20,000 nt of DNA from an uncultured virus (IMG/VR IMGVR_UViG_3300035701_000017) (IMGVR_UViG_3300035701_000017), one strand, 5' to 3'; counted from the first letter of the stretch, positions 517 to 20,000 are shown. Notes: generated from the letters alone by a model not told the origin. A program made the numbers and translations.

Positions 517-3291
517 TTAAAAAAGCGAGTTTTCAAAATTTAACGCTCGTCCCTTTTCATCATTTCTACCAGGACCCTTATCAGTCCTCAATCTATCATT
601 CTCAACTATCTCTCCATCAACTATAATAGGATCTTCAGTATAATGAGCATGAGATTTTCTTAATCCTATATTATGCTTATAATTAAATAAATTTAATGAT
701 GTAACAAACTCATATCTTATATCAGTTGAATCAACATACTCAACATCAAAATGTTGTTGAGTAGCTATGCCTTTAACATCAGGCGTAGATATAGGTCCAA
801 TAGCATAAACTTGAGCTTTTCTTCTTATAATAAAGTCTCTTTGAGTTATAGTTGGCGATATAGTTGTCCATGTCTTTTCCATGTTTTCTAATTTCATACC
901 TCGTTCAGTCATACGAATTTTTTGTTCAGACTGAAACGGTGATATCCTAATTTCAAACGGCCCTTCATATCCTCCAACAAATCCAGTGCCCCAACAAAGC
1001 TTACATGAACCAACTTGAGGCTGAACATGTGTACGTTCATTTCTTTTATAACATTCACATTTTGTTCCAGTAGTTTTTCTAATAAATAATAATACTCTTT
1101 CGCCTGCATTATCAAGTAACCAATTATTTCTTCTTATTGCTTCTAAATACATATAATCCAACTTTTCAGCGGATAAAGTTTCAGCCGGACACCACTCAAG
1201 TCTTGTTTCACTACCATCTTCTAATATAGCTGTAACTTTATAATATGGAAAACTTGAAAGATTCATTTTTAATGTATTAATTTCGTACATATACGACACA
1301 GTAACAATTGAACTAATCGTCGGCACAACTGGTTCAACCCACAATTTTCTAACTTCATCATATTGCCTGTCAATTTGTAATACCACTCGACCTTTCAAAC
1401 CATCAACAGACTTCACAATTGCACTTTTACCATCAACTATTACGTCAACATCAAAAGTTTGATCTGTATACAATCTATTAGTTCTATTAGTTACAATCGG
1501 CGCATGTCTAACATCAAACCAATACTCATTTCTCTCATTTTTAATTAACGGCAAATAAGCTTTTCCTACATTAACATTGAAATACAAAAATTTAACATTT
1601 ACACTTGTATTAGGACTCTTATTATAAAACTTAACTTGTAAATTATCTTTTGAAAAATTAAGATATGAATCTAATAACACCCAAGTAGAACCATCATTAT
1701 AATAAGTTGAAACATCAGTCGTTGATCTAATTATTCGTATTTTAGCTTTCATATCTGAATTTAAAACTTCAACTCTACTTACTTCCTGTGAATCCACAAC
1801 TAATGAACTAACATAATAATCAGTAGCTTCACGTCTAACTTTTGATAACTTAACATACGAAAACTCACTATATGAAACTATAAATGACATCTCAGAAAAA
1901 TTTATTGAATCAGTTATCGGCCATTCAACTAGCTCATATTGCGTCTCAATATCAAAATCATTCTTCAATATAAACTTAGACTGAAAATAACAATCTTTAT
2001 AACCATATACATCAATAAAATTTATACCATTAGACTGACTAAATAATCGATCATCATCAATAGCTTCCCATTGATTAGCATTTACAATTTCACCTGTAAA
2101 ATCAGTACTTACTTCAACTGGTGTTGACACTCTAAATTGATCTGACACATTTTCTTTAACGACTATTGTATTTAATTTTTGATCTCTATAAAAAGTAGTT
2201 GTTACTAGTGTTTTATTTATTTTAACAAAAGTTTTATCACTTTTTGAATAAACATCATTTGACGTTAACACATCATGTGAAACTATATTTTGCAATGATT
2301 GCTCATCAGTTTGAGATCTGTAAATATTATAACCAACAACATCATCGCGCATTTGCATCATATCATCCCAACAAATATCTGCTGTATACTTAATATATGG
2401 AAAACTAACAAAAACATTTGTTGGCACTATATTATTTTCAAGTGGGTAAATAGTATACGACTGAGTCTTTACTATCTCTTGATTACCAAACTCATCAACT
2501 GCAAAATATTTTAATACAACGTTATCAATAATTGCTAAAACTACCGGTGAAGCATCTTTATCTGTATAATGATTAATAGTTGGCGTTGACCCATCAAGAG
2601 TATAATAGATAGTTGCAGGCTTACTTGATGTCAACGTCACAAATTTTTCTTCATTATAATTTCCGCCACCAACACTTGCAGTTGTCACAGGCGTCACATT
2701 ATCATTTACATAAGTGTCAAATGAATATAATTCAACATGAACAATATCAGAATTATCATCTTCATCAATACCAAAAAACTTTAATGTTGTATTCTGTAAT
2801 ATAACTATTGGTACAGTATATTGAGTTGAAGCATTTGTTGGATATGAACCATCAACTGTATAATAAATTGTTGTATTTGGTTTACTACTAATTAATGCAA
2901 CTGATTGTTGTGAATTATATGTGGATCCTTTTGGATTTGCAATTACGACAGGCAATATTGTATCATTAACAATAATCGTAAAACTATAATTGTCAGTGTA
3001 TTGCTGAGATGCATTATCATTAACTGAAATCAAAACATCTATTATTTGCCCTCTAGTAAATATTGTAATATGTTGAATATAAACATCATATCCTCTAGCA
3101 TTATTGTTTATTGCACCTGAAAAATTTGTTTGAAATACACCGTTAATAATAGCATCAACACCATCAACTTTCACATTAATAGTATTTCTATTTGCAATAG
3201 ATGTTTCATTGCGTATTTCAAAATAAATAGGAGCAGTTCTTGATACTCCCGCTGTATCTTTTTCTGGTGAATAACCTTGAAATACTATCAT
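517..3291 (-). CDS. Large putative virion neck/head-completion protein with N-terminal Ig-like, two chitobiase/Fn3-associated and FN3-like domains
   Basis: 924 aa. Two repeats of TIYYT(V/L)DGS.PT...LK.F..D..N (CHB_HEX_C/Fn3_assoc-like) and an FN3-like W...VVGYNIYRS motif. The C-terminal GERVLLFIRKTTGTKCEC...CKLCWGTGFVGGYEGP resembles neck/head-closure proteins of large phages (recognition, not searched). Confidence 0.6.
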   Translation of the reverse strand: MIVFQGYSPEKDTAGVSRTAPIYFEIRNETSIANRNTINVKVDGVDAIINGVFQTNFSGAINNNARGYDVYIQHITIFTRGQIIDVLISVNDNASQQYTDNYSFTIIVNDTILPVVIANPKGSTYNSQQSVALISSKPNTTIYYTVDGSYPTNASTQYTVPIVILQNTTLKFFGIDEDDNSDIVHVELYSFDTYVNDNVTPVTTASVGGGNYNEEKFVTLTSSKPATIYYTLDGSTPTINHYTDKDASPVVLAIIDNVVLKYFAVDEFGNQEIVKTQSYTIYPLENNIVPTNVFVSFPYIKYTADICWDDMMQMRDDVVGYNIYRSQTDEQSLQNIVSHDVLTSNDVYSKSDKTFVKINKTLVTTTFYRDQKLNTIVVKENVSDQFRVSTPVEVSTDFTGEIVNANQWEAIDDDRLFSQSNGINFIDVYGYKDCYFQSKFILKNDFDIETQYELVEWPITDSINFSEMSFIVSYSEFSYVKLSKVRREATDYYVSSLVVDSQEVSRVEVLNSDMKAKIRIIRSTTDVSTYYNDGSTWVLLDSYLNFSKDNLQVKFYNKSPNTSVNVKFLYFNVNVGKAYLPLIKNERNEYWFDVRHAPIVTNRTNRLYTDQTFDVDVIVDGKSAIVKSVDGLKGRVVLQIDRQYDEVRKLWVEPVVPTISSIVTVSYMYEINTLKMNLSSFPYYKVTAILEDGSETRLEWCPAETLSAEKLDYMYLEAIRRNNWLLDNAGERVLLFIRKTTGTKCECYKRNERTHVQPQVGSCKLCWGTGFVGGYEGPFEIRISPFQSEQKIRMTERGMKLENMEKTWTTISPTITQRDFIIRRKAQVYAIGPISTPDVKGIATQQHFDVEYVDSTDIRYEFVTSLNLFNYKHNIGLRKSHAHYTEDPIIVDGEIVENDRLRTDKGPGRNDEKGRALNFENSLF

Positions 3292-3686
3292 TTATTTACC
3301 TCAATCACTACTTGACTAATTATTTTGTCGTCATCATTAAGTAAAAGCGTGTTCAAATAATCTTTAATCTTTAACCAATTTATTTCACACATTGCTCTAT
3401 TATCAATGTACATATCAGCATATATCTTTGGTGATGTTTCAAAATCTAAAAAGTCAGCATTTTCATTTATAGCATGAAACACAATTGCATTTTTATTTAA
3501 AAAATCCATTGCATTTTGCAAACACTTTTCATTTCTACATGTCCACAAAATAACATAAAACTTATCATACATCCAATTAATCACTTCTTTAGCATTTGGC
3601 ATCAACTCAAACTCAGTTGCTAAATATGCCTTATCAAGTTCTTTTACTAGCGTTCCGTCAAAATCAACAGCTATTATTTTTTTCAT
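3288..3686 (-). CDS. HAD-superfamily hydrolase/phosphatase (capless, BT0820-like)
   Basis: Motif I IAVDFDGTL, motif II ILWTCR, and C-terminal KIYADMYIDNRA. ATGA overlaps with both neighbours. Confidence 0.85.
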   Translation of the reverse strand: MKKIIAVDFDGTLVKELDKAYLATEFELMPNAKEVINWMYDKFYVILWTCRNEKCLQNAMDFLNKNAIVFHAINENADFLDFETSPKIYADMYIDNRAMCEINWLKIKDYLNTLLLNDDDKIISQVVIEVNK

Positions 3687-4189
3687 AAAACTTTTATCTC
3701 ACAAGGTTCTTTCTTTTTACCTTTAAATACCCAATCTTTAAAATCATCCATTGAAAGCTGAACTATTGAATCTAAACCTTTCCAATTTTTATCATAATTA
3801 GCAAGATATGCTTTTCTTGCTTTATCTTCAGTCTCAAATCCTAACATCACTTTATGTTCATCAAATCTTTTATTCTCAGGATTAACTTGATTAACAACAA
3901 ATACTGGCAAACCTTTTTTTGCATTTGTGTTAAGAAAAACGTCAACATGATCTTTATCTTTACCTTCGGTACCTTTTATATAGCCATAATGATGTTTAAG
4001 CACATTTGACCATTCTTTTCCATCTCTAGATACTCCACTCCTTGTTGATCCTTTTGGATTTTCAATAGAAATGTCAAGACCTTCAAACTTACGATGCTGT
4101 TTTTTATAATTACCGGCATCTTTCTGAGCGTCTGACAATTCTTTTGCAATTTTTAAAAAATCTGCTTGAATAATACTTAAATATTTCAT
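3683..4189 (-). CDS. Inorganic pyrophosphatase-like (InPase) domain protein of the phage/polyvalent-protein type
   Basis: GNYKK...GLDISIENPKGSTRSG...HYGYIKGTEGKDKDHVDVF...VVNQ...FDEHKVMLGF...AYLANY..W.G is the characteristic InPase-domain pattern. Confidence 0.85.
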   Translation of the reverse strand: MKYLSIIQADFLKIAKELSDAQKDAGNYKKQHRKFEGLDISIENPKGSTRSGVSRDGKEWSNVLKHHYGYIKGTEGKDKDHVDVFLNTNAKKGLPVFVVNQVNPENKRFDEHKVMLGFETEDKARKAYLANYDKNWKGLDSIVQLSMDDFKDWVFKGKKKEPCEIKVL

Positions 4190-5514
4190 ACTTTCTCCAT
4201 TATAAAACTTAACTTTTCATTTAATTCAATAAAACACTTTTCAGGATCATCATTAAAATGCACTTTAATCGGCTCAACTATTTTATACTTTAAATTTAAC
4301 CGTTTATATAATGATAATTTCCCGCACCAATCAATATCATCTTTTCTTCTCAAACCATCCATCTCTATATGCAAATCAAAATCAGGCAAATATTGATCAG
4401 CATGCTTTAAAGATTCTCCTATCCTTTTCTGAGGTATATGCCTAATATTCTTTGATATTAACCACTCTTCTAAATCTTGCTCATTCAATGACCACCACTT
4501 ATGACCATCAGAAGAAATGCCATAATAGCCATAATGTTTCTTTTTATTAAATTCTACTACTTTTTTATTTTTCTTTGGTTTGCAATCTAAACAAATATAT
4601 CTTCTGGATTTTGCACTTACTTTAAATTCATTATGACATTTTGAGCATTTTCTATATGAGCAATTGTCACTTTTAACATATATTTTAAGCTCGTCTTTTT
4701 TGCTATTACAATCTTCACAGGACATAAATGTCGCGTATGGATCTTTAACAATTATATCTTTACCACAAATTTTACAATGTCTAGTATAATCTATTAAATA
4801 TTTTGGATCTTTTAAGCAATTTGAACAAGTATAATGTCGTTTTTTTAAATCTCTTTCAACTTCTTCTTTAGTACCACAATATTGACAAGTTCTATAATGT
4901 TTTCTATCAAAATAACTAAGCTTTTTTAATCTTTTATTATCTTCTTTTTTCTGTTTACATTCTTTACAATATAAAACTGTTGCATGTCCTGCAGTCTCAA
5001 TATCTTTTGAACATTCTAAACATTTTCTAATAAAAACTTTAACTTCATTTTTCAGTTCTTGTTTTTTATCTTCACATTCTTTACAATTAATGACTGTTGC
5101 AAATCTATTAATTGTTTCTACATCTTTACCGCACGTCTTGCAATGTCTAGTATAAACTTTTTGAGATAATTTTATTTTTTCTATTTCTTCATTTTCTTCT
5201 CGTTTACAATCAAAACATACAGTCGTATTTCCAGCAGGAAATTTATCCCTATGTAATATTTGTTTACATCTACTGCATGCAGTATGAGTTTTATTAAATT
5301 GTACCTTATCTTTACATTCAGAACAATGATAAGCTCTTGAACTGGGATCCTTCTTAAATTCTTTTCCACAATTAGTGCATATATTTGTCGACTTCTCTTG
5401 CAATCTTTTCTGTCTTTGCTTCTCTTCACACTCATCACATTTAAAATAAGTACAATACTTTTCTACTTCAACTTCTTTTCCACAATCTTTGCATTTGTAA
5501 TTAAATAAAGTCAT
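4186..5514 (-). CDS. Free-standing putative homing endonuclease: tandem Zn-ribbon array plus C-terminal PD-(D/E)XK (DUF559/Vsr-like) nuclease domain
   Basis: 16 CxxC motifs (8 pairs) in the first ~310 aa. C-terminal DGHKWWSLNEQDLEEWL...ADQYLPDFDLHIEMDG resembles the S..E...D...IE.DG nuclease core. Confidence 0.7.
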   Translation of the reverse strand: MTLFNYKCKDCGKEVEVEKYCTYFKCDECEEKQRQKRLQEKSTNICTNCGKEFKKDPSSRAYHCSECKDKVQFNKTHTACSRCKQILHRDKFPAGNTTVCFDCKREENEEIEKIKLSQKVYTRHCKTCGKDVETINRFATVINCKECEDKKQELKNEVKVFIRKCLECSKDIETAGHATVLYCKECKQKKEDNKRLKKLSYFDRKHYRTCQYCGTKEEVERDLKKRHYTCSNCLKDPKYLIDYTRHCKICGKDIIVKDPYATFMSCEDCNSKKDELKIYVKSDNCSYRKCSKCHNEFKVSAKSRRYICLDCKPKKNKKVVEFNKKKHYGYYGISSDGHKWWSLNEQDLEEWLISKNIRHIPQKRIGESLKHADQYLPDFDLHIEMDGLRRKDDIDWCGKLSLYKRLNLKYKIVEPIKVHFNDDPEKCFIELNEKLSFIMEKV

Positions 5515-5516
5515 AC

Positions 5517-5573
5517 ATTCATCCTTTCATGGTTTATAATATTTTAAAATATTATGCCTTAAGCAGGATGAAT
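5517..5573 (-). promoter_or_regulatory. Predicted mRNA hairpin sequestering the RBS of the endonuclease gene
   Basis: Perfect 9-bp inverted repeat attcatcct (5517-5525) / aggatgaat (5565-5573) flanking a perfect 20-bp palindrome ataatattttaaaatattat (5536-5555). On the minus-strand mRNA the 3' arm is AGGAUGAAU, 2 nt before the AUG at 5514. Confidence 0.6.
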
Positions 5574-5589
5574 TTACGCGACACGCAAA

Positions 5590-6888
5590 TTAGCCCATCT
5601 GAATTCTATTGAATCGTGACCCAGTCCATCTCTTAATGCTCTGGCCTGACGTGTTGTGCACTACGATATTATTTGCTATGTAATTGCAGTACGACGGCCT
5701 CATTTGCAAGTCGTAAGTCTCAAATTTTCCAGAATAATCAATATCAATAATTTTTGCTAATTTCAATACATTTTTATTATTTTTAACCCATATTTTCTCA
5801 TTTAAATCTAAATCCTGTAACATTACTTCACTATTGTCATCATAAAAGAATTTATGAGTCTTTGTGCATTCAATTTCATAATCTTTACTCAATTTTATCT
5901 TATATAAGTCCTGTTTTCCATTGCTCCAAATTGCCATCACATCATTTACAAACAATTTATTTGTTGCAAGATCCATAGAGAGACTATGTGTCATCTTTTT
6001 ATTATATGCTTCCTCAATTGTAATGTCTTGATTAAGATTTGTGTCTCGTACACGCGAGCATGCACGAATGCACCAAGGACCTAACGACGCGCCTCTAGAA
6101 TATGTGTACCTATCCTGCCGGAGTCCGACAATGCATTTTACTCTCTTTTTTGCCATTTCTAATTGTTTATCTATAGTCGATTGCATCTGATTCGCTAAAC
6201 CAGAGTACTTGTCTGAACGTCTAATGTCTAAACTAACACCTGCAAGCGAATAATTGAATTCTTCTCCAGCCCATAAAATTGCTAGATCATATAGTGCGTA
6301 TACTTGAGCTTCCATTAGCATTAATGGCTCCCAAGCTGCTGGAAATGACATTAATTCGTATTCTGTTGCAGGTGGCCATAAATTTATATAATTTGATGCA
6401 TCTTCTAAATGATTTGCTAATTGATCGTCAGGCCATTTATAACCCCGAGTCTCTGTAAAACCGGCGATTTCTTGTTCAGAAGATGGAGGACTAAAACTGT
6501 TCGAAACCACTATCTGTGATGCTAAAACAAAGTTTTGATTATCTTTAACAGATAAATCATACATGTATTGTTTGGAATCAATTTTTTCAATTGTAGCATT
6601 TAATAATTTCGAGTTGTTGTTAATTATGCATATAAAATTGTTAGATTCAATAGGCTTAACTTTTTTAATTTCATTACTTTGAAATGTATATAGACTATGA
6701 TCTTCTGTTACAATCACACTTTTATTATTTTCAAACGTCACTTTATAAATATCTTTTAATACTGTAATATGTTCAAAGACATCAATAATTGGTTTATATT
6801 CAACAGTGCCAATGTTATTAATGGATTTAATTAATAATGCTTTATTATTAAAACAATCTTTTATTTTTTTAATTTTATTATCAAGCAT
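5590..6888 (-). CDS. C-terminal half of fractured putative head-tail adaptor/neck gene: IntC (130 aa) + extein (142 aa) + cis mini-intein (140 aa) + extein (20 aa)
   Basis: ATG at 6888 has AAGGAG 7 nt upstream (preferred over the TTG at 6933). Contains two sets of intein block B and F/G motifs. The extein WPDDQLANHLEDA...ALYDLA...AGVSLDI is helical and adaptor-like. Confidence 0.8.
   Translation of the reverse strand: MLDNKIKKIKDCFNNKALLIKSINNIGTVEYKPIIDVFEHITVLKDIYKVTFENNKSVIVTEDHSLYTFQSNEIKKVKPIESNNFICIINNNSKLLNATIEKIDSKQYMYDLSVKDNQNFVLASQIVVSNSFSPPSSEQEIAGFTETRGYKWPDDQLANHLEDASNYINLWPPATEYELMSFPAAWEPLMLMEAQVYALYDLAILWAGEEFNYSLAGVSLDIRRSDKYSGLANQMQSTIDKQLEMAKKRVKCIVGLRQDRYTYSRGASLGPWCIRACSRVRDTNLNQDITIEEAYNKKMTHSLSMDLATNKLFVNDVMAIWSNGKQDLYKIKLSKDYEIECTKTHKFFYDDNSEVMLQDLDLNEKIWVKNNKNVLKLAKIIDIDYSGKFETYDLQMRPSYCNYIANNIVVHNTSGQSIKRWTGSRFNRIQMG
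5653..6072 (-). mobile_element. Contiguous mini-intein (140 aa, Cys1 ... His-Asn / Thr+1), no endonuclease domain
   Basis: W|CIRACSRVRD (block A), IECTKTHKFF (block B TxxH), ETYDLQM...NYIANNIVVHN|T (blocks F/G). Confidence 0.92.
6499..6888 (-). mobile_element. C-terminal fragment (IntC, 130 aa) of an atypically split intein
   Basis: No block A. Has IYKVTFENNKSVIVTEDHSLY (block B) and MYDLSVKDNQNFVLASQIVVSN|S (blocks F/G, terminal Asn, Ser+1). Confidence 0.88.
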
Positions 6889-7017
6889 ATACTGTCTCCT
6901 TACGTGCGTTAATATTTTGTAAAATTTTATCAACGCATGATATGATATTATTATTGATTTCCTTTTCCCAAAATCTTAATACAATCCATCCTCTATTAGT
7001 AAGATATGTGGTTTTGC

Positions 7018-7098
7018 ATTTATCTTTTGACAATCTCTTTTTACAACGTTTACATTTAATAGTGTTTCTACAATAGTCACAAATTCTTCCTTTATTGT
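7018..7098. repeat. 81-bp exact direct repeat, copy A (out of context)
   Basis: atttatcttttgacaatc...ttcttcctttattgt is identical to 7544-7624. Confidence 0.95.
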
Positions 7099-7543
7099 AT
7101 AAAATCCTTTATCTTGCAATATTTTAAATAATTTAATTGCTATACTTGAAATATATGATTGGCCACTGATGCCACATAATGATGATGAAATTTTCATTCT
7201 ATTTCTATAAAATTCAGAATATATAGCATCTTTACTATATTCATTAACAAATTCTTGATACGTCATTTTAAAATATTTTTTTATATGCGATGCAACCATA
7301 AGTTCAACTTCTCTTTTACACTTAGAACATTTAATTTTATTGCCTGTAATTTTATTATTTTCAATTTCAATGCATTCGTTGCATATAAATCTTTCAGGAT
7401 GTTTAAATTATATCTTTTAATCACAATAACTTCTTTATTGCACTTTATACAAATGATATGTCTTTGTTTTCTATTATCTCTTGCTATCTGTTTATTTTTA
7501 ATTGCAATATTTAGACAATCATTACAAACTAAACTATTAGTAA

Positions 7544-7624
7544 ATTTATCTTTTGACAATCTCTTTTTACAACGTTTACATTTAATAGTGTTTCTACAAT
7601 AGTCACAAATTCTTCCTTTATTGT
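7544..7624. repeat. 81-bp exact direct repeat, copy B (native; encodes NKGRICDYCRNTIKCKRCKKRLSKDK)
   Basis: Identical to 7018-7098; copies are 526 bp apart. Confidence 0.95.
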
Positions 7625-7891
7625 TTGTTTCACTATTGCAATATCTACAATGACAAACGTTCATTCTCTTTTTTATACTCTTAACTACTTGTCTTCTTTT
7701 TGATTGACATTCATTACATATTTTCATTCCATAATTAAATTCAGACTCTTTAATTTTTAGTTGATTACACTTTTTGCATAATTTTAATCTATTCTTTCGT
7801 TTGTCTTTACAAAAATTACAAATCTGATTTTTCCCACTAAATTCATTAATTGTCTTTAATTGATTACATTTTTTGCATTTCTTTTCCATTT

Positions 7892-8395
7892 TTATTCCTG
7901 CATTTTAATAATTTCATATAAATCTTTTATTGTCAAAGAAATTTCTTCACCATCTGCTAAAACTGTAAGTAACTCATTACCATCAATAGAATAATCTCTG
8001 TCAGGGTTTACGTCCCTTAATTTGACTCTTAATTTATGAAGAAGTCTTTTAATTTGATCCGGATATTCTTCATTTATTAATGTAAGCTTCGAGACAATAT
8101 CAAATTCTTCAGGCCATGATGTAATTGTGCTCGTTGCAGTTTCTTTTATTTTCCAGACAATTTTATGAAGGCCTATTGATTCATCAACTGAAATTTGCCA
8201 TGGTGCAAAATAGCTGCCAACAGCAAATTTAATAGGTAATCTATCAGTACCACCAATTAACACCGGTGATCCAGAAGTCACATCAAAAAGATCAAATGTC
8301 AAGTTATATGGATCTTTTAAATGACCTGATCTATCGTAAATAAATACGTTTAGATTGTCTTTTGTAGTAGTATCGCCACGTCTTAATGCATTCAT
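7892..8395 (-). CDS. N-terminal half of the fractured gene: Ig-like domain + start of adaptor helix (135-aa extein) + IntN (32 aa)
   Basis: AAAGGA RBS. LLHKLRVKLRD resembles the first helix of head-tail adaptors, and is followed by Y|SIDGNELLTV...LTIKDLYE. Confidence 0.82.
   Translation of the reverse strand: MNALRRGDTTTKDNLNVFIYDRSGHLKDPYNLTFDLFDVTSGSPVLIGGTDRLPIKFAVGSYFAPWQISVDESIGLHKIVWKIKETATSTITSWPEEFDIVSKLTLINEEYPDQIKRLLHKLRVKLRDVNPDRDYSIDGNELLTVLADGEEISLTIKDLYEIIKMQE
7895..7990 (-). mobile_element. N-terminal fragment (IntN, 32 aa, Ser1) of an atypically split intein
   Basis: SIDGNELLTVLADGEEISLTIKDLYEIIKMQE* fits intein block A (S/C-h-x-G-D/N-x-x-h-x-h) plus the following I.DL motif, then stops. 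Confidence 0.82.
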
Positions 8396-8410
8396 TTTAA
8401 TGTCCTTTTA

Positions 8411-8944
8411 TTAACAAAATGGATAATTGCATGTTCCACTTTGTCGTCTAAAATTTACAGAGCTTGATCCACACGTTATGCCATGTTGATAATATGGTGC
8501 GTAAGCATATTGCCAACAAGCGTTTTTATAACCATAATCAGGCATGTTGCCTGTTCCAGATTGTCTTTTGCTATTGTCAAAGCCTGTTGGTCCATGTGAT
8601 GCCTTACATGCTTCAACTGGTTGTTTATACACAGAAAATTCATCAGCTTTAGATATTAATTGACTAAATTGTGTTTCTTGAATTTCCCATACTATTCTAA
8701 ATGTTCCTGCTTTCAATGTGTCAATCTTTGACATCCATGCAAAGTTAGCATAATATTCACCAACACTAAACCTTGATGCCTGTTGACCACTTTGTACAAC
8801 TTGTCCGCAAACACCATAAATAGTATATGTTACTGAATAAGGGTCAAACAATTGACCATTTACATAAGTATAAATAGGAATCAATTTAGTTGCTGCTAAA
8901 GCATCTAAATCATATCCTTTAATTTGAGATCCATTAAAATCCAT
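8411..8944 (-). CDS. Hypothetical virion protein, Ig-like paralog with Cys/Gly/Tyr-rich tail
   Basis: DPYSVTYTIY...VGEYYANF...GTFRIVWEI...DEFSV pattern shared with neighbouring ORFs. Confidence 0.65.
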   Translation of the reverse strand: MDFNGSQIKGYDLDALAATKLIPIYTYVNGQLFDPYSVTYTIYGVCGQVVQSGQQASRFSVGEYYANFAWMSKIDTLKAGTFRIVWEIQETQFSQLISKADEFSVYKQPVEACKASHGPTGFDNSKRQSGTGNMPDYGYKNACWQYAYAPYYQHGITCGSSSVNFRRQSGTCNYPFC

Positions 8945-9311
8945 AAGGCACTCTATATATTAGTTGTTCAAGTGAAACGATTTCACCAATAGTATAATTC
9001 ACTTCTGCTAATTCAATATCTCCTCCACCATTTGGTATTGTTACAGTCCCTGAAATTTTAACTACACCAACATTGTCTTTAATAACAAATTTCTTTATTT
9101 CATTTGCATAAATTGCAATTGTTTGTTTTGGAAATCCATTAGCAACAGCTTCACCATCAATAGCATTAGCAAAAGCATCATTGTCTAAAGATAATATTGC
9201 AATATCTATATCTGCTGCATTTCTAAAAACTAATGTAGCACCGCTGTCTAATAAATTACAAACTGTATCAGTAATTAAATTTCTAGTTAATAAGTCATGT
9301 GCTACTGACAT
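8934..9311 (-). CDS. Hypothetical small beta-rich phage structural protein
   Basis: 125 aa with AAGGAG RBS. SGTVTIPNGGGDIEL...GEIVSL pattern is reminiscent of phage tail-region proteins. Confidence 0.6.
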   Translation of the reverse strand: MSVAHDLLTRNLITDTVCNLLDSGATLVFRNAADIDIAILSLDNDAFANAIDGEAVANGFPKQTIAIYANEIKKFVIKDNVGVVKISGTVTIPNGGGDIELAEVNYTIGEIVSLEQLIYRVPYGF

Positions 9312-9319
9312 ATCTCTCC

Positions 9320-9691
9320 TTACATTATTATTTTTTCTCTAGCATAGGTTGATCTGCAAAATTCACCAGCATATTTAGTTGGCATAATAACATCAAAAGA
9401 TTCAGATACCATCTGTAATTCTGTATCTTGAAATTTTTTATAAGACCATTGAATTATATGTCTGCCTGGTCTAAAAACTTTTGGATCTAAATGAATAGGT
9501 ACAAAATAAGAACCGTTATCAAATTTCATTGGAAGACTATTTATCGTTTGTCTAATAATTTCTTGTCTACCATGAGTACAATCAAACATAGTGTATGAAA
9601 CATAATATGGATCAATTGGCATAACACCGTCACTATTGTAAAAGAAAACTTTTAAATCTTCTTTAGTTAATAATTTGCCTAAATAGATCAT
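9320..9691 (-). CDS. Hypothetical virion protein, Ig-like paralog
   Basis: DPYYVSYTMFD...GSYFVP...GRHIIQW...ESFDV, clearly similar to the N-terminus of 7892..8395. Confidence 0.68.
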   Translation of the reverse strand: MIYLGKLLTKEDLKVFFYNSDGVMPIDPYYVSYTMFDCTHGRQEIIRQTINSLPMKFDNGSYFVPIHLDPKVFRPGRHIIQWSYKKFQDTELQMVSESFDVIMPTKYAGEFCRSTYAREKIIM

Positions 9692-9693
9692 TA

Positions 9694-10038
9694 TTAATCC
9701 TTAACAAACTTAACAACCATATCTGAATAAATTGACGCTGGCACAACCATATAAGAATCTTCAATTTCACAAATTGTTGTATCAACAGGATGAGTTCCTG
9801 TAGCTGTTACATAATAAGTTTCATTTTCTGGAACTGTATCTGGAATTGTCCAATTTGACGTATATTCGCCTGTAGATATATGAACTAATGGAGTAGATAC
9901 AACGTCTACTGTCTTGACATTATTTACAAAATGGCAAATAGTATATGACGCATTTAATACGTCTATAGGCTCTTCTGTATTTACGTCAATGAAAATAAAT
10001 CTAGAATCAGCAATATCTCCTCGTCTAAATTGTCTCAT
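9694..10038 (-). CDS. Hypothetical virion protein, Ig-like paralog
   Basis: MRQFRRGD...SYTI...TGEYTSNWTIP...EDSYMV; shares the RRGD start with 7892..8395. AAAGGA RBS. Confidence 0.65.
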   Translation of the reverse strand: MRQFRRGDIADSRFIFIDVNTEEPIDVLNASYTICHFVNNVKTVDVVSTPLVHISTGEYTSNWTIPDTVPENETYYVTATGTHPVDTTICEIEDSYMVVPASIYSDMVVKFVKD

Positions 10039-10119
10039 AATTGAAATCCTTTTTATAGTAACATTTAACGGACTATCTCAATTATTACAATTTTATTAAA
10101 TAAGAATTCAGTATGATGA

Positions 10120-13100
10120 CTATTTAAAAGCTTTAATCTCTATTGATGGCGTGTCCCAGCCGTCATAATTAGTAATAGAAGTTATTTTAAAACCAACATT
10201 TTCTAGTAATGCTCTTATCTCTTGTTTTGAATATCCTGATTTATGAACTTGAGCTTCATCTAATTCACCTGACAAACTCATTTGTCTTCCAAAAATAGTA
10301 TATCTGAACCATTCTCTGGCACTTTGAAATGACACGCCTCTTTTTAAAATATGTTCAGGCGGATTAAGATAAGATTCACAACATGATTGTAAATCTGGTA
10401 TTTTTAATATTAATTCACATCCATCTTTTAATACTCGATACCACTCTTTTACTGCTCTTTCAGCTGCTTTAAATGTTAAATGTTCTAAAGCGTGTTCACT
10501 ATATAAACCGTCTATTGATGCATCACCGTATGGTATATTATCCATTGAAAATATCTCATCAACATTTTCATGTTTAAAAATATCAACTCCGACATATCCT
10601 TCAATTTTCTTTCCACCACAGCCTAAATTCAATTTCTTAATCTTGTTTTGACCTTTAAATTCAATTATCCAATTTTCAGCTATTTTATCCCATGTATAAT
10701 TAACAACTTTATTATATGCTTTATCTGCCCATTCTTTTCTATATTTATCATCAGTTAATACTTTTATTGATTCTTCTATAAACTTTTTCTGGTATTCTTC
10801 AGATCTTGAATTTCCATTAATTAATATTGCTGCATTGTATAATGTTGTTTTTAATCCAGCTAAATTAGACGTAACAAGGGCACATTTTGAAACACCTGCA
10901 TCAACTGCAGTAATGCAAAATGTTTCCCAAAACCATGTTGGATATAGCCATGCTTTACATTCCATTTGTTGTTTTGCTAATTCTTCTTTTGACAGTCTAC
11001 CGACATAATTTATTCCTGGCTGTTTCATCAATTCTTTTATTTCATTTAAATGATCAACTTCAGTTTTTTGATTACCTCTAACTTTTATAGCTTGTTCCCA
11101 GTTATACAATCCATAAGCTATTATTAATTCTAAATCAGGAACATTTTTCCTTAATATAGGAAATATTTTCAACAATTCTAATAATCCCCTGTCCAAGCTT
11201 GAACTATAAAATATCTTATTTTTCTTTTTAACATTGTCAACATTACTATATATTGATAAGTCTTTGCCATTAGCTGTTAGCATTATCTTATCTGCGGGTA
11301 TATTATGATGACTCATTACAAATTCTTTATGCCAATCACTCAAAACAGCAAATTTCTTAATTTGCCATTGTTTTGTATCATATTTTGAATCAAACGACAA
11401 CCATACGTCATGAATCATTACATATTTATTCATACAATGAACATTATTACTAAATACATCACATGATCTTGACGAAATGAAATAATCTACATAATCATAC
11501 TGTAAATCTTCATTCAATTTAGAATAATGTCTGTATCTTTCACCATCTTCTTCTATTACCCACTCATTCACATTATTTGTATCAAGATCAATATAAACTG
11601 TAACTAAATAGTTCTTCTTACTAAAAGCTCTAGCTAATTCCATTGCCCACGTCTCAGATCCTGCCATTCCTTGCAAAACTTTTTTCTTATTCCATCTTTC
11701 AAATGCAGGTCCAGTATATATTACAATCTTCTCTTTAGCATACTTTTGTTTTAAATACTGATGATTATAAACGTCTTCTTCGCGATATTGGTTATTGTTT
11801 TCAATTTCATACGAGCCGCGCGACACGCCGCCAAAATGAAATACAAACGAGTCAATAGCTTGCCCAATCTCATACTTATGTTTTCTTAATCTTATACATA
11901 AGTCTAAATCTTCACAACCAGTCTTAAAATTTGGATCAAACAAGCCCACTTCATTAATTGCTGATCTTGCAAATATTGTGGCATAAACAGCAACCCACTC
12001 TTGACTTACATATTTATCTTTATATTTATTGTTACACGTTTGCATAAAATCATACAATTCATTCACGTAAACTTGATTAATTTTCATGCCTGGTACTAAC
12101 TCAACACCTGATGGTAATTTCATGTCATATATTGGTCTACCTTTAACACCATGCATCCAACCTCTATCACAGTTTGATAATACCCCACAAGCAGCAAGTC
12201 TCGATACTGATTCTATTTTATTAACTAAATTTGTGAGCCAGCCTTTAGATACAATGACATCAGAATTCAAAATAACAAAATATTTTGAAAATGATCTTAA
12301 TATGCCTTCATTACATGTTTGAGAATAATTTAATCGTTTGTCTTGCTGACCAATAATTGATACACCTTTAAGTGCATTCAAATAATCCCAAGTTTCTTTA
12401 TTACTTCCTGCGTCTGATATAATTATTCTATAAGCACTATTAGTGTTGTCTCTAATTGAATTAATACATAATTTTAAATATTCAACATTATTGTAACTTG
12501 CTATAATGATGTCAACAGCTTCATCTGTTTTCTGTACTTCTATCTTGTCTAATGTTAAGTCAAACAATAGTTGAACCCATTGACTTGTTATAGGTTCTAA
12601 CATATAATTAGAAATAGATTTCTTTGCATTTTCTCCAATAGATTTTCGTTTATTTGCATCTTTTAATTCAATTAATGCGCTTAACCATTCATTTTCAGTA
12701 GTACATAAATATCCGTTTTTGCCATGTTGAATTACTTCTTCATACGCTTTAAGAGGGCTTGCAATTACAGGCAGTCCAAGAGCCATTGCTGTTGTAACTT
12801 TAACGTTTGACTTTGCAGGTTGAACATCTCGACAGGGACATAAAACAACATCACACTTGTTTAATTCTTCATGCCATGTATCAATATTCCACTTAATAGT
12901 AGCATTATCCCATTCACTAATTATTATTAACTCATATCCTGCTGACTCAATAATTGATTTCATATTTAGAGCCAACTCTGCATTACCGCCCATACCCATA
13001 TATACAGCTTTTAATTTGTCACGACTCTCATATAGATGACTAACACTTTTTGGTTCTATTGCGTCTTTTATTATTACCGTATTATTGTAACCCTTTTCAT

Positions 13101-14538
13101 TTGTCATTTGTGCTAATTTAGTTGAGCAACATATTATTTTGTCAAATCTTGTACAACAACCCGTTTGATATAAACCGTCAAATAGTGCTTCACAAAAATC
13201 AAAAATAATTTTAACTTGTTTTTCTTTTAACCGTTTAATTAATCTAAAATCACATTCTCCGTATTGTGTAAAAATAACAACTTGACATTCTTGTAATTTA
13301 TTCATTACGTCATCTATGGGTAAACTATAATAATCTGTAATTATTATTGAATCTACACCCAAATATAATAGTCTGTTATGTATGTTATAGCGTCTAATTC
13401 TAGTTGAAGGAAAATTGACATCAAAATGAGGTATTAACCATGCAATCTTTATTTTAACAGTATGAGTTAATAATAATCTATTGTCACTTAATAATGAATC
13501 ACTAAAAGGACGCGTTTTTAATGCAATTAAATTATACTTTAATGATTGAATATAATCTTTCTTGTGATGATAATACAAAAGTGATAGACAATTTGCAGGT
13601 TTCAATTCATAAAATTCTGGTAATTGGGAAAAACCAGCAGTACCAAATTTTTTAGTAATAGCTAATTTAAAATATTCTATTGCTAAATCAATTTCATTAA
13701 GTTTTTGACATGCATCTGCGTAATAGTAGTATAGTTCAGCATAACTGTTACAAAAAGATAGTCCTTGTAATGCAAAGTTTTTTGCAGTTTTAAAATCTTT
13801 TTTTTCTTCTAAATAATATTGTGACAATCTTTGACAAGCTGCTGCTAAATTATCAACAAAACCTTGACTACACTTAACATAATCTTCTAAAACAGTTACA
13901 CCTTCATCATAAAATCCAGCATCAAATAAATCTTTTCCAAAATAAAATTTAATTCTTGGCGTTGGATTTTCATTATAATGTTTGCGTAATATTGCTAGAT
14001 TTCTATCAGCAACATACGGTCTCATCCGATAATGATCAACAAAAGCATCATTTACATACTTAATTTTAGCAGATGCATCATACGATACTATTTCATGAAT
14101 TGGATCTTGCCATCTAAATCTTGAATCTTTGTTTTTAAATATCCTTTCTCGAGGATGAATATTATGCGGGTTGTCAAATTCATCATGATGATAAATATAA
14201 GGCAATTGAATAATGTCATAGTTATGTAACTCTTTTTTTAATTGTAACAATTTTTTATAACTATCTGGTTTAATTACATCATCAGCGTCTAGCCAAAAAA
14301 CATATTGACATGATGCTTGATCAAGATTAAAATTTCTAGCAGCTGAAAAATCACTTATCCATTTAAAAAATGATATTTTTGCATTAAATTTTTGTGCAAC
14401 TTTTTTGACTTCTTCATCTTCAAATGTTTGTGTAATTATGATTTCATCAAGCAAATCGCCTTTTAAGCTTTCGAGACATCTGTTTAATTCAAAAGCTTCA
14501 CCCTTAGTAACTATAATAGTTAAACTTAATGTTGTCAT
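10120..14538 (-). CDS. Multidomain glycosyltransferase: GT2 - TPR - GT-B(GT4-like) - GT2 - GT-B(GT4-like) - class I SAM methyltransferase
   Basis: GT2 motifs W..DFSAARN, WLDADD, IHE; TPR-like helices; KSNVKVTTAMALGLPVIASP; second GT2 VDIIIASYN...LNSD...EDLDLCIR; GSET...SSSLDRGL...ETFCITAVDA; LNLGCG...GVDI...SEHALEHL...WYRVLKDG.L...PD. AAGGAG RBS. Confidence 0.9.
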   Translation of the reverse strand: MTTLSLTIIVTKGEAFELNRCLESLKGDLLDEIIITQTFEDEEVKKVAQKFNAKISFFKWISDFSAARNFNLDQASCQYVFWLDADDVIKPDSYKKLLQLKKELHNYDIIQLPYIYHHDEFDNPHNIHPRERIFKNKDSRFRWQDPIHEIVSYDASAKIKYVNDAFVDHYRMRPYVADRNLAILRKHYNENPTPRIKFYFGKDLFDAGFYDEGVTVLEDYVKCSQGFVDNLAAACQRLSQYYLEEKKDFKTAKNFALQGLSFCNSYAELYYYYADACQKLNEIDLAIEYFKLAITKKFGTAGFSQLPEFYELKPANCLSLLYYHHKKDYIQSLKYNLIALKTRPFSDSLLSDNRLLLTHTVKIKIAWLIPHFDVNFPSTRIRRYNIHNRLLYLGVDSIIITDYYSLPIDDVMNKLQECQVVIFTQYGECDFRLIKRLKEKQVKIIFDFCEALFDGLYQTGCCTRFDKIICCSTKLAQMTNEKGYNNTVIIKDAIEPKSVSHLYESRDKLKAVYMGMGGNAELALNMKSIIESAGYELIIISEWDNATIKWNIDTWHEELNKCDVVLCPCRDVQPAKSNVKVTTAMALGLPVIASPLKAYEEVIQHGKNGYLCTTENEWLSALIELKDANKRKSIGENAKKSISNYMLEPITSQWVQLLFDLTLDKIEVQKTDEAVDIIIASYNNVEYLKLCINSIRDNTNSAYRIIISDAGSNKETWDYLNALKGVSIIGQQDKRLNYSQTCNEGILRSFSKYFVILNSDVIVSKGWLTNLVNKIESVSRLAACGVLSNCDRGWMHGVKGRPIYDMKLPSGVELVPGMKINQVYVNELYDFMQTCNNKYKDKYVSQEWVAVYATIFARSAINEVGLFDPNFKTGCEDLDLCIRLRKHKYEIGQAIDSFVFHFGGVSRGSYEIENNNQYREEDVYNHQYLKQKYAKEKIVIYTGPAFERWNKKKVLQGMAGSETWAMELARAFSKKNYLVTVYIDLDTNNVNEWVIEEDGERYRHYSKLNEDLQYDYVDYFISSRSCDVFSNNVHCMNKYVMIHDVWLSFDSKYDTKQWQIKKFAVLSDWHKEFVMSHHNIPADKIMLTANGKDLSIYSNVDNVKKKNKIFYSSSLDRGLLELLKIFPILRKNVPDLELIIAYGLYNWEQAIKVRGNQKTEVDHLNEIKELMKQPGINYVGRLSKEELAKQQMECKAWLYPTWFWETFCITAVDAGVSKCALVTSNLAGLKTTLYNAAILINGNSRSEEYQKKFIEESIKVLTDDKYRKEWADKAYNKVVNYTWDKIAENWIIEFKGQNKIKKLNLGCGGKKIEGYVGVDIFKHENVDEIFSMDNIPYGDASIDGLYSEHALEHLTFKAAERAVKEWYRVLKDGCELILKIPDLQSCCESYLNPPEHILKRGVSFQSAREWFRYTIFGRQMSLSGELDEAQVHKSGYSKQEIRALLENVGFKITSITNYDGWDTPSIEIKAFK

Positions 14539-18297: not shown

Positions 18298-20000
18298 TTA
18301 AGAAAATACTACTCTAATGAAGAGTAAATTAAAATCTGCAACAAGTGTATCACCTGCTGCAGCCGGATATCTTGTTAACTCAAACTGAGCAACCCTTCCT
18401 GCAGTTAAAGTTAATGAAGAAATTGCTACCGTTTGTGTCAAATAATGAAAATAAACATCGGTATTGATTGTTAATGTATTGAGACTATACCTAGCTGTCC
18501 AAGATGCCACTACAGCATTATCTGGCATATCTCGAGTATAAAGAGCCATAACAACACCCTTAGACACTCCCGGTGCTGTAGCAGCTTTCCCTATTATTGA
18601 GATAGTCATGTTAACTGCATTCGTTGGAATTTCTAAAACAAATCCCACTCCTTCTTCAGTAGTATCATCAAAAGCTCTTACCCGCAAACCATTATTAGTA
18701 TTGTCAGGTATTAATGGAGCAAGCACATTTATTGTCCAGTTTGCATTATTCGGTGAATCAAAATCTTTTGCTCGTAAATGATGCTCTTGCTTTAACGGCA
18801 CATCTGGAATACCAGTAACCCCCTGCACACCAGTATTTCCTTGTAAACCCTGTATACCAGTATTACCTTGTAAACCCTGCACACCAGTATTGCCTTGTAA
18901 GCCCTGCACACCAGTATTACCTTGTATACCCTGTATACCAGTATTACCTTGTAAACCCTGCACACCAGTATTACCTTGTAAACCCTGTATACCAGTATTG
19001 CCTTGTATACCCTGCACGCCAGTGCTACCTTGTGTCCCTTGCACACCAGTTTCACCTTGTGCACCATTATTTCCAATAGAAACTAACAAATTCCATTTAT
19101 CAGGATTTTCAGACGGTGGATAACCTGAATTTGCAGCAATACATATATACGAACTTCCCAATTCTTGAACAGCATCGTCAACTGCATAATTAGTATGCAT
19201 GGACCAATCACCCAACCAATTTAATCCTTTTAGTCCTGTTATACCTTGAACGCCCGTTGCGCCTTGTATACCAGTATCTCCTTGCACACCTGTAGCTCCC
19301 AATCCTGGATCACCCGTTATACCTTGAATTCCAGTAATGCCATTATAGCCTGTTATACCCCGAATTCCTGTCTCTCCCTGTATCCCATCAATTCCTGTTA
19401 TCCCTTGTAAACCCGTCTGTCCTTGCAAACCATCAATACCTGTTATGCCTCGTAAACCTGTTAAACCTTGTACTCCTGTTGTGCCCTGTAAACCATCGAT
19501 GCCTGTCAATCCTTGCAAGCCATCAATACCTGTTATTCCCTGTTCTCCTGTCAATCCTTGCAAGCCATCAATACCTGTTATTCCTTGCACTCCCGTTGTG
19601 CCCTGCAAGCCATCGATACCTGTTATTCCCTGTTCTCCTGTTATACCTTGCAAGCCATCAATACCTGTTATTCCTTGTACTCCTGTCAATCCTTGCAAGC
19701 CATCAATACCTGTTATTCCTTGTACTCCCGTCAATCCTTGCAAGCCATCAATACCTGTTATTCCTTGCACTCCCGTTGTGCCCTGCAAGCCATCAATACC
19801 TGTTATTCCTTGCACTCCCGTTGTGCCCTGCAAGCCATCAATACCTGTTATTCCTTGTGCTCCCGTTGTGCCTTGCAAGCCATCAATACCTGTTATTCCT
19901 TGTGCTCCCGTTGTGCCTTGCAAGCCATCAATACCTGTTATTCCTTGTACTCCCGTTGTGCCCTGTAAACCATCGATACCTGTTATTCCTTGTGCTCCCG
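18298..20000 (-). CDS. Collagen-like fibre protein (5' end outside window) with internal CBM5/12-like module and C-terminal globular domain
   Basis: The frame stays open to 20000, so the TTG at 19923 is not the start. Long G-X-Y runs; W.GDW....Y...D.V...GSSYIC......PP.....W module between two collagen blocks. Confidence 0.88.
18820..19020. repeat. 27-bp coding tandem repeat (GNTG[VI]QG[LI]Q), about 7 units
   Basis: Recurring ccagtattaccttgtaaaccctg(c/t)a(c/t)a units. Confidence 0.85.
19485..20000. repeat. 45-bp coding tandem repeat (QG[TL]TG[AVE]QGITGIDGL), more than 11 units, continuing beyond the window
   Basis: Recurring caagccatcaatacctgttattccttg(c/t)actcccgttgtgccctg units. Confidence 0.92.

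Follow-up and report, generated by a model that had tools for sequence, protein, structure and literature searches.

A split intein and an apparently decayed DUF559/Vsr-like nuclease in a predicted phage neck gene

The DNA considered here, referred to as the window, is a 20,000-nucleotide (nt) stretch of an uncultured virus (IMG/VR IMGVR_UViG_3300035701_000017), whose record is a 73,716-nt sediment phage contig, i.e., a virus fragment, that harbors a tail sheath gene. The minus strand carries a gene, here called the host gene, which is predicted to encode a head-tail adaptor (neck) protein and is interrupted by two inteins. The first of these (intein a, at site a) is split, and between its N- and C-terminal halves (IntN and IntC, respectively) are found the remains of a DUF559/Vsr-like nuclease, distributed over three reading frames. 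The catalytic core of the nuclease is missing, and in its place is found an exact 81-nt copy of the gene's own Zn-ribbon DNA. Three alleles that differ in their state of decay coexist, and sister genes of the host are empty at site a, with His at the position (+1) that follows the insertion site.

Layout of the locus

The host gene is composed of two open reading frames (ORFs), 7892-8395 and 5590-6888, both on the minus strand. The features of the locus are as follows, in the order in which they are read:

7991-8395, minus: N-extein, 135 residues, immunoglobulin (Ig)-like domain, ending in ...DRDY; 131/135 identical to P0105, a relative that is empty at site a; fold taken from the intein-free homologue P0001
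7892-7990, minus: IntN of intein a, 32 residues, Ser1, acidic (8 Asp/Glu, 2 Lys/Arg), stop codon included; aligns with the N-termini of contiguous alleles
7410-7889, minus: nuclease remnant, piece 1, Zn-ribbon array of 160 codons; 38-43% identical to the N-terminal parts of intact L106, L109, L110 and P0079-P0081
7544-7624, minus: 81-nt repeat, original copy, encoding Zn-ribbon residues; a separate 81-nt unitig in sequencing run X1
7407-7409, minus: one-base frameshift of the window allele; a minor contig of run X2 has one base more and keeps the frame
7099-7407, minus: nuclease remnant, piece 2, with the last Zn ribbons, a YS..Y motif, a short linker and helix 1 of the nuclease domain; identity to L109 and L110 of 43% over some 75 residues
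7018-7098, minus: 81-nt repeat, second copy, standing where the catalytic core would be; X2 contig 12 contains the junction
6881-7024, minus: nuclease remnant, piece 3, C-terminal helix and strand of DUF559; PF04480, E 3.3e-7
6896-6901, minus: Shine-Dalgarno-like AAGGAG, 7 nt 5' of the IntC ATG and within the 3' end of the nuclease; read from the sequence
6499-6888, minus: IntC of intein a, 130 residues, with motif-NX His40, TEDH (motif N3) and a VSN end before Ser+1; PF14890, E 3.6e-13
6073-6498, minus: C-extein 1, 142 residues, Ser+1 first, helical adaptor domain; 141/142 identical to P0105; top rows in a VIA comparison are phage adaptor or neck chains
5653-6072, minus: intein b (site b), contiguous mini-intein of 140 residues, Cys1, HN end before Thr+1; PF14890, E 3e-15; 128/140 identical to the P0105 copy
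5590-5652, minus: C-extein 2, 20 residues and stop; the three extein pieces sum to 297 residues

The total extein length (135 + 142 + 20 = 297 residues) is equal to that of the intein-free homologue in L002. The predicted structure of the intein-free homologue (pLDDT 72.7) is composed of an Ig-like domain and a helical domain. In the VIA comparison with this model, ranks 1-7 were all phage adaptor, neck or tail chains, including T4 gp13/gp14, with Z 9.8-11.3 and root-mean-square deviations of 2.2-4.4 over 93-113 residues; for helical domains, values of Z below about 13 can reflect a common arrangement, which speaks against too firm an assignment. Foldseek, which by itself gave an unclear picture, placed a portal-adaptor chain at rank 5 (E 1.8e-3), and no PHROGs family matched the host protein or the nuclease pieces. 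Based on the structural model, the host is predicted to be a neck protein encoded within the virion gene block. Because relatives of the host protein (78-80% identical to the intein-free homologue) are found on contigs of 330 and 416 kb, the phage is probably large.

Intein a carries all of the marks of a split intein of the cysteine-less type, i.e., Ser1/Ser+1, the motif-NX His, the motif-N3 TxxH and a terminal Asn. Its sizes (32 and 130 residues) place it among the atypically split inteins, for which the available text of PMC13014065 gives an IntN range of about 15-37 residues. The IntC has two non-junction cysteines (positions 12 and 87) and a penultimate Ser, and its His40 is unchanged in 12/12 aligned alleles, where it aligns with the [RK]H of the solved Ser1 inteins 9HTH, 2CW7 and 5O9J. 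From the purine run upstream of its ATG, IntC likely has its own ribosome-binding site, so that a dead nuclease would likely be dispensable; comparable purine runs precede IntC in most of the other split loci shown. On the 5' side, the IntN stop and the nuclease ATG are separated by a 2-nt spacer, and no hairpin was found before the nuclease (folding z +0.42). A sigma-70-like site (7908-7936, minus strand; 10/12, with TG extension) is found inside IntN, just 5' of the nuclease start; the promoter scan as a whole gave 28 sites, not significantly more than the 21.3 +/- 5.4 expected by chance.

The nuclease core and coexisting alleles

The original prediction, made from the sequence of the window, described a decayed DUF559/Vsr-like nuclease hidden in three frames between the intein halves, and the segments quoted there are all present on the minus strand: a Zn-ribbon array from the ATG at 7889, CSKC...SHIKKYFKMTYQEF and SSIAIKLFKILQDKGF in the second frame, and then DKCKTTYLTNRGWIVLRFWEKEI. 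The ORF of piece 1 continues out of frame to 7281. Piece 3 covers positions 69-108 of the 109 in DUF559 (PF04480) with E 3.3e-7 (30.6 bits at a cut-off of 20.6), in agreement with the family proposed for the C-terminus. This last segment had been reported to lie outside the ORF track, which holds only in part, i.e., an ORF of 50 residues (6881-7033) appears if TTG starts are allowed, and the TTG used is found within the duplicated DNA. The nuclease TGA (6883-6881) and the IntC ATG (6888-6886) overlap by 8 nt (6881-6888), as had been proposed.

What was lost can be seen from the intact site-a relatives (L106, L109, L110, L116 and L150), which are single ORFs with DUF559 above the cut-off in 5/5. 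Their alignment with the window pieces breaks off after an invariant Glu and resumes at an invariant Asp-Lys. The distance between these two landmarks is 46 residues in 7/8 relatives measured and 51 in the eighth, where three further relatives that misfit the search pattern were left out. In the intact relatives, the D, ExDG and WH residues are found within the stretch that is missing. With the residues mapped onto the EDxHD motif in the available text of PMC3239194, the lost residues would be the metal-binding Asp and the His. A complete catalytic motif was found in no single frame of the window; its first Glu and last Asp alone remain, and the core is also absent from the near-identical strain L001. 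As judged from its sequence, the window gene is a remnant of a DUF559/Vsr-like nuclease rather than an active member.

The original prediction noted a gap at this position. The core is indeed missing, but its place is filled by the second repeat copy. The copies at 7018-7098 and 7544-7624 form an exact direct repeat of 81 nt with a spacing of 526 nt. The 73,716-nt contig has no other exact repeat of this length and, outside the collagen-like region, no other of at least 40 nt. The first 12 nt of the second copy encode TIKE and its last 7 nt encode DK in the nuclease frames. The TIKE codons put the invariant Glu in place without a gap, and 62 nt of foreign DNA remain between the Glu and Asp-Lys arms. 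We infer that the ends of the repeat are microhomologies common to the Zn-ribbon DNA and the nuclease DNA.

The allele evidence was drawn from assembled contigs. Part of the stretch was detected in seven sequencing runs, of which three contain at least half. Run X1 contains all 303 sampled words of 5500-8500, and its repeat is a separate 81-nt unitig at a depth of 131.6, between flanks at 83.6 and 69.4, each of which overlaps it by exactly 30 nt. Two paths must enter the repeat and two must leave it to produce such a pattern, with an estimate of roughly 0.6-0.9 copies of the middle piece per genome. In run X2, from another study, a contig spanning 7069-7445 (depth 3.9) reaches 30 nt into the second copy. 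This minor contig has one extra base at 7407, by which the frame is kept, and at 7236 it encodes the Gly of most relatives in place of the window's Ser. From the main path of X2 (depths 24.6 and 28.4), no branch leads into the middle piece, so that about 85% of X2 looks deleted. The downstream contigs of X1 and X2 are unbroken to 7047 and 7098. No contig of the runs that was examined shows an intact core or the intact single ORF that would have indicated an active nuclease.

The deleted state is also found in L001, which lacks the 526 nt between the copies, has one repeat copy and a single 160-residue ORF, and contains no match to piece 2. The 160-residue protein was found on 2 contigs from two assembly sources, JGI and Logan. 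From 4406 to 9511, L001 and the window differ by no substitution apart from the deletion, which is therefore recent. Over 2801-13000 the identity of the two strains is a mosaic, with 0 substitutions in 4406-9511 and in 9900-13000, 17 in 9512-9899 and 56 in 2801-4405, which suggests recombination between strains. Several decay states thus coexist, i.e., the duplicated allele, the 526-nt deletion and a minor allele without the frameshift. Among the remaining runs, X3 contains 0.82 of the words (0.84 is expected for a pure deletion allele) and none of its contigs examined spans 6850-8100; it was not counted as evidence. A contig of X4 is identical over 7991-8500 and ends at the splice junction with 2 unmatched letters, which is suggestive only. 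Runs X4-X7 have small word shares, and the matches in X5 and X6 are short and from other organisms.

We consider it probable that a ready-split IntN-nuclease-IntC cassette came to reside in the neck gene, that the nuclease core was replaced by a copy of the upstream DNA through two slips at microhomologies, and that collapse of the resulting repeat gives the 526-nt deletion. According to this scheme, an active ancestor would have cut empty neck genes, and repair would have copied in IntN, the nuclease and IntC together with the Ser+1 codon. Two slips, one at the 12-nt match (TIKE codons) and one at the DK codons with a match of 7 nt or more, would then have cost the gene about 46 codons and put the 81-nt copy in their place; the Gly-to-Ser change and the one-base frameshift would have followed. 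Recombination between the copies would finally yield the in-frame 160-residue stub, whose stop again overlaps the IntC start. Whatever the allele, two chains of the neck protein would continue to be produced; Ser1/Ser+1 trans-splicing would link them, and intein b would be excised in cis.

The same sequence is predicted if the events took place in another order, with a short deletion (at the DK microhomology) as the first step and the window allele formed later when a deleted genome crossed over unequally with an intact one at the TIKE codons. The abundance of the deleted allele, which is the main path of X2 and is found on 2/3 contigs that carry the window's IntC protein, fits this order. It requires an intact allele in the same population, and none was found in the X1 or X2 contigs, although contigs drop rare variants. 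In addition, an exact 81-nt repeat is a ready substrate for collapse. We regard this order as rather unlikely.

The distance from the YS..Y motif to the Glu is 45 residues in the window as compared to 115-145 in 6 relatives, which may be due to a further deletion or to natural variation; an intact relative with a short linker may exist. An intact allele of the window's own gene was not found among longer proteins with the middle piece or in a profile search, nor by exact DNA pattern in viral contigs (a set that may leave out near-identical records), nor via the host gene in GTDB genomes. Decay is common among relatives, i.e., among the 12 site-a split loci with both ends, 5 have a single intact nuclease ORF and 7 are broken (4/9 lineages), where assembly errors may account for some of the single-base breaks, as these are metagenome contigs. 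The broken nucleases are those of the window, L001, L112 (stop at the invariant Glu), L126 and L121-L123. The last three are near-identical strains with differing lesions, i.e., frameshifts at separate places and a core Asp-to-Gly change, and represent a parallel decay series.

History of the cassette

A tree of the host was built from 82 C-exteins (64 empty, 12 split and 6 contiguous at site a; 5 partial proteins were left out and P0077 was skipped). Here, the window is the sole carrier of intein a in a clade of 35 rows (SH-aLRT 99), of which 34 are empty. The nearest sister, P0105, with exteins that are identical at 131/135 and 141/142 positions, has the same intein b and no intein a, and a contig of run X7, about 90% alike, departs from the window at 7991 into an empty allele. 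The +1 residue in 63 proteins that are empty at site a is His in 58, Arg in 2, Ser in 2 and Ala in 1; because 58/63 have His and 2 have Ser, the carrier must have brought its Ser codon along. More generally, the +1 place lacks Ser, Thr or Cys in 61/63 empty alleles at site a and in 53/76 at site c, another insertion site of the neck gene, while at site b it is mostly Thr or Ser already. The distribution of site-a inteins on the host tree is patchy, with 14 changes, 7 of them forced by starred branches.

On a tree of 52 IntC rows, no other allele exceeds 49% identity to that of the window. The split and contiguous states require 8-9 changes, and neither state forms one clade (p-AU 9e-6 and 3e-6). 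The nucleases fall into one group for site a and another for site c (support 98), as do the inteins (98/90). Nuclease distances are correlated with IntC distances (rho 0.57, n=11; rho 0.48, p 0.012, n=8 without the deep clade), while IntC and host distances in the shallow set show no co-variation (rho -0.21, n=7). Taken together, the trees suggest that a ready-split cassette moves as such, with occasional re-fusion of the halves, and it is likely that the cassette entered the window's gene already split.

According to the original prediction, a free-standing nuclease instead invaded a contiguous intein in the window lineage, split it, and is now decaying, i.e., the locus would be a snapshot of how split inteins arise. 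Unsplit alleles of intein a do exist (11/27 site-a rows), as that prediction had anticipated, but in distant relatives. The rows nearest to the window IntC (P0062, L118, P0061 and P0063) are contiguous, and repeated invasion could also produce the 8-9 changes between states that do not form single clades; the trees cannot tell repeated invasion from repeated re-fusion. However, the nearest contiguous rows are at most 49% identical, 34/35 rows of the host clade including the sister P0105 are empty, and the co-variation of nuclease and IntC distances speaks against this history as well. The lengths of the contiguous alleles argue in the same direction. The distance from Ser1 to the NX His is 55-60 residues in 3/11 contiguous alleles (L113, L149 and P0061) and 67-72 in the other 8, while the summed length in the split loci (9) is 68-80. 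The three short alleles have 7-17 residues less across the split point than the rest, which looks like the result of a deletion that accompanied re-fusion, and L113 is sister to the split P0073 (support 100/99). Invasion and splitting at the window locus is thus improbable, and the locus more likely represents a late stage, i.e., nuclease loss (step III of Dassa et al.), than the origin of splitting.

Alternatively, the true gene could be intact or simply deleted, with the repeat and frameshift built by the assembler. In the protein collection, a single contig carries the ORFs of the duplicated allele. In addition, the window may itself derive from X1, whose middle piece is not among the contigs examined. 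Independent 31-mer contigs nevertheless give the repeat unitig at about 1.7x the flank depth in X1, where 303/303 sampled words are present, and the junction of the middle piece with the repeat in X2, which is from a different study, making an artefact quite improbable. Scarcely credible is a programmed device (a switch, or template and variable repeats of a diversity-generating retroelement, whose templates have a size range that takes in 81 nt) or ribosomal frameshifting to an active protein, since the copies are identical without adenine changes, no reverse transcriptase is found in the 73.7-kb record (a fragment), and the catalytic residues are in no frame, so that recoding cannot restore the nuclease.

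Several points weigh against the proposed scheme of a ready-split cassette followed by core replacement and repeat collapse. Contigs rather than raw reads were used, and contigs drop rare variants; the X1 middle contig, from what may be the source of the window itself, is absent from the 76% of records examined. No intact allele of the window gene was found, so that the microhomology arms rest on protein motifs, and the order of duplication then deletion is presumed. Nuclease and host distances co-vary weakly at the shallow site-a loci (rho 0.46, p 0.03, n=7), in agreement with a degree of vertical descent. Although the cassette appears to be a recent gain, its nuclease is far decayed, with a linker that is 70-100 residues shorter than those of relatives; it may have moved by recombination, or via another nuclease (the ORF 4186-5514 or a second DUF559 gene, see below), after its own nuclease died. 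His40 of the window is preceded by Glu, while the preceding Lys or Arg is reported as invariable in the available text of PMC10189870. Finally, splicing and cleavage are predictions.

A broader scenario can be put forward tentatively, as a possibility that we hold to be somewhat less than even. Here, cassettes would home ready-split into intein-free neck genes and overwrite the His with their own Ser+1, the nuclease would destroy itself via the Zn-ribbon microhomologies, and many contiguous mini-inteins would be re-fusions. If true, the usual path from contiguous to split would be reversed, with each stage visible in living populations.

Other intein sites of the neck gene show related arrangements. 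At site c, the nuclease is fused in frame to IntC in L036, L116, L127, L130, L144, L155, L157 and L160, which by analogy would be half-way to step IIIa of Dassa et al., and in L119 site c is split without a nuclease (step III). A fourth intein site with Cys1 is found a few residues upstream of site a in L023, L029, L032 and L035, with a nuclease of another type in the gap, which we take to be TnsA-like; in L032 the nuclease and both intein halves are in a single frame.

The neighborhood contains further nuclease-like genes. Directly downstream of the neck gene is a 442-residue Zn-ribbon-rich ORF (4186-5514, minus strand) with a nuclease-like C-terminus, which could mobilize the region in trans; a similar ORF is found downstream of the neck gene in L106 and not in L002. 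Outside the window, at 50827-51969 (minus strand) of the contig, a second Zn-ribbon/DUF559 ORF of 380 residues has an intact DGDYWH motif, and the ORF downstream of it presumably encodes an actin/FtsA-like protein. The virion gene block also holds an InPase-family ORF (3683-4189, minus strand; PF18823, E 1.2e-58) and a HAD-like phosphatase ORF (3288-3686, minus strand). Elsewhere in the window are a collagen-like ORF of Gly-X-Y repeats (18298-20000, minus strand) and a 1472-residue ORF (10120-14538, minus strand), which we take to be a fusion of glycosyltransferase and methyltransferase domains.

Relation to known systems

The predicted host differs from the phage head-tail adaptors (T4 gp13, cyanophage A4 and Pa223 chains), with which the helical domain of its homologue (residues 112-265) aligns at Z 10.9-11.3, in having an added N-terminal Ig-like domain, in its sequence (6-13% identity) and in the at least four intein insertion sites across the host neck-gene family. 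In the literature searched we found no report of inteins in neck proteins, of self-templated loss of a homing-nuclease core or of split-intein re-fusion, where the supplements of Dassa 2009 and of a bioRxiv survey may hold cases; no neck-protein host is described in the available parts of PMC12707363 and bioRxiv 2025.01.02.630785.

The nuclease shares with I-Bth0305I (Taylor et al. 2011, available text of PMC3239194) a DUF559/Vsr-type C-terminal domain behind a DNA-binding region, as seen in the intact relatives. In contrast to that enzyme, it is associated with an intein rather than a group I intron, has Zn ribbons rather than NUMOD repeats and, in the window copy, is without a core. In a profile comparison with structures, 3HRL was matched at E 8.7e-8 and 3R3P weakly (E 0.068), and the sequence link of the window nuclease clade to I-Bth0305I is weak.

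Intein a resembles PolB16 OarG (Pasch et al. 2023, PMC10189870, as far as its available text goes) in having Ser1 and Ser+1, the motif-NX His, a short IntN and two non-junction cysteines in IntC, and differs from it in the length of IntN (32 as compared to 15 residues), in its penultimate residue (Ser as compared to His) and in the Glu before the NX His. Its split after the first helix, a placement inferred for the window, resembles the S2 site of the GOS/AceL TerL inteins in the part of PMC13014065 available, where GOS TerL has Cys+1 instead of Ser+1. According to that source (2026), no natural intein other than PolB16 is known to be both cysteine-less and atypically split. The predicted Ser1/Ser+1 intein with a 32-residue N-half may be added to this class of one natural member and is a candidate tool.

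The closest parallel is the fractured gene, for which the available text of Dassa et al. 2009 (PMC2677866) describes the layout, the overlap of nuclease and IntC, and nuclease loss (step III). In both cases extein-IntN, nuclease and IntC-extein follow in this order on one strand, and the nuclease stop overlaps the IntC start (8 nt in the window, 6-69 there); there, too, a long IntC is found at a terminase locus and an additional intein at one DnaE locus. The spacer there is 27-51 nt with a hairpin (15/16 loci, i.e., common and not universal), while that of the window is 2 nt without a hairpin. The window differs further in its predicted host, a virion neck protein rather than an enzyme of DNA metabolism or packaging, in its Ser1/Ser+1 chemistry and the Zn-ribbon array of its nuclease, in the breaking of the nuclease by self-copying, and in the apparent movement of the cassette, already split, into empty genes.

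The window locus is thus a late decay stage of a known arrangement, and its importance is tempered by the layout being known and by nuclease decay being expected under the homing cycle. Dassa et al., in the text available, proposed nuclease loss as a step in split-intein evolution from before and after states alone; at the window locus decay intermediates coexist in near-identical strains and the mutational route is visible. The host tree also suggests that a split intein and a free-standing nuclease can spread as one unit with their own +1 nucleophile, which would widen the range of usable sites.

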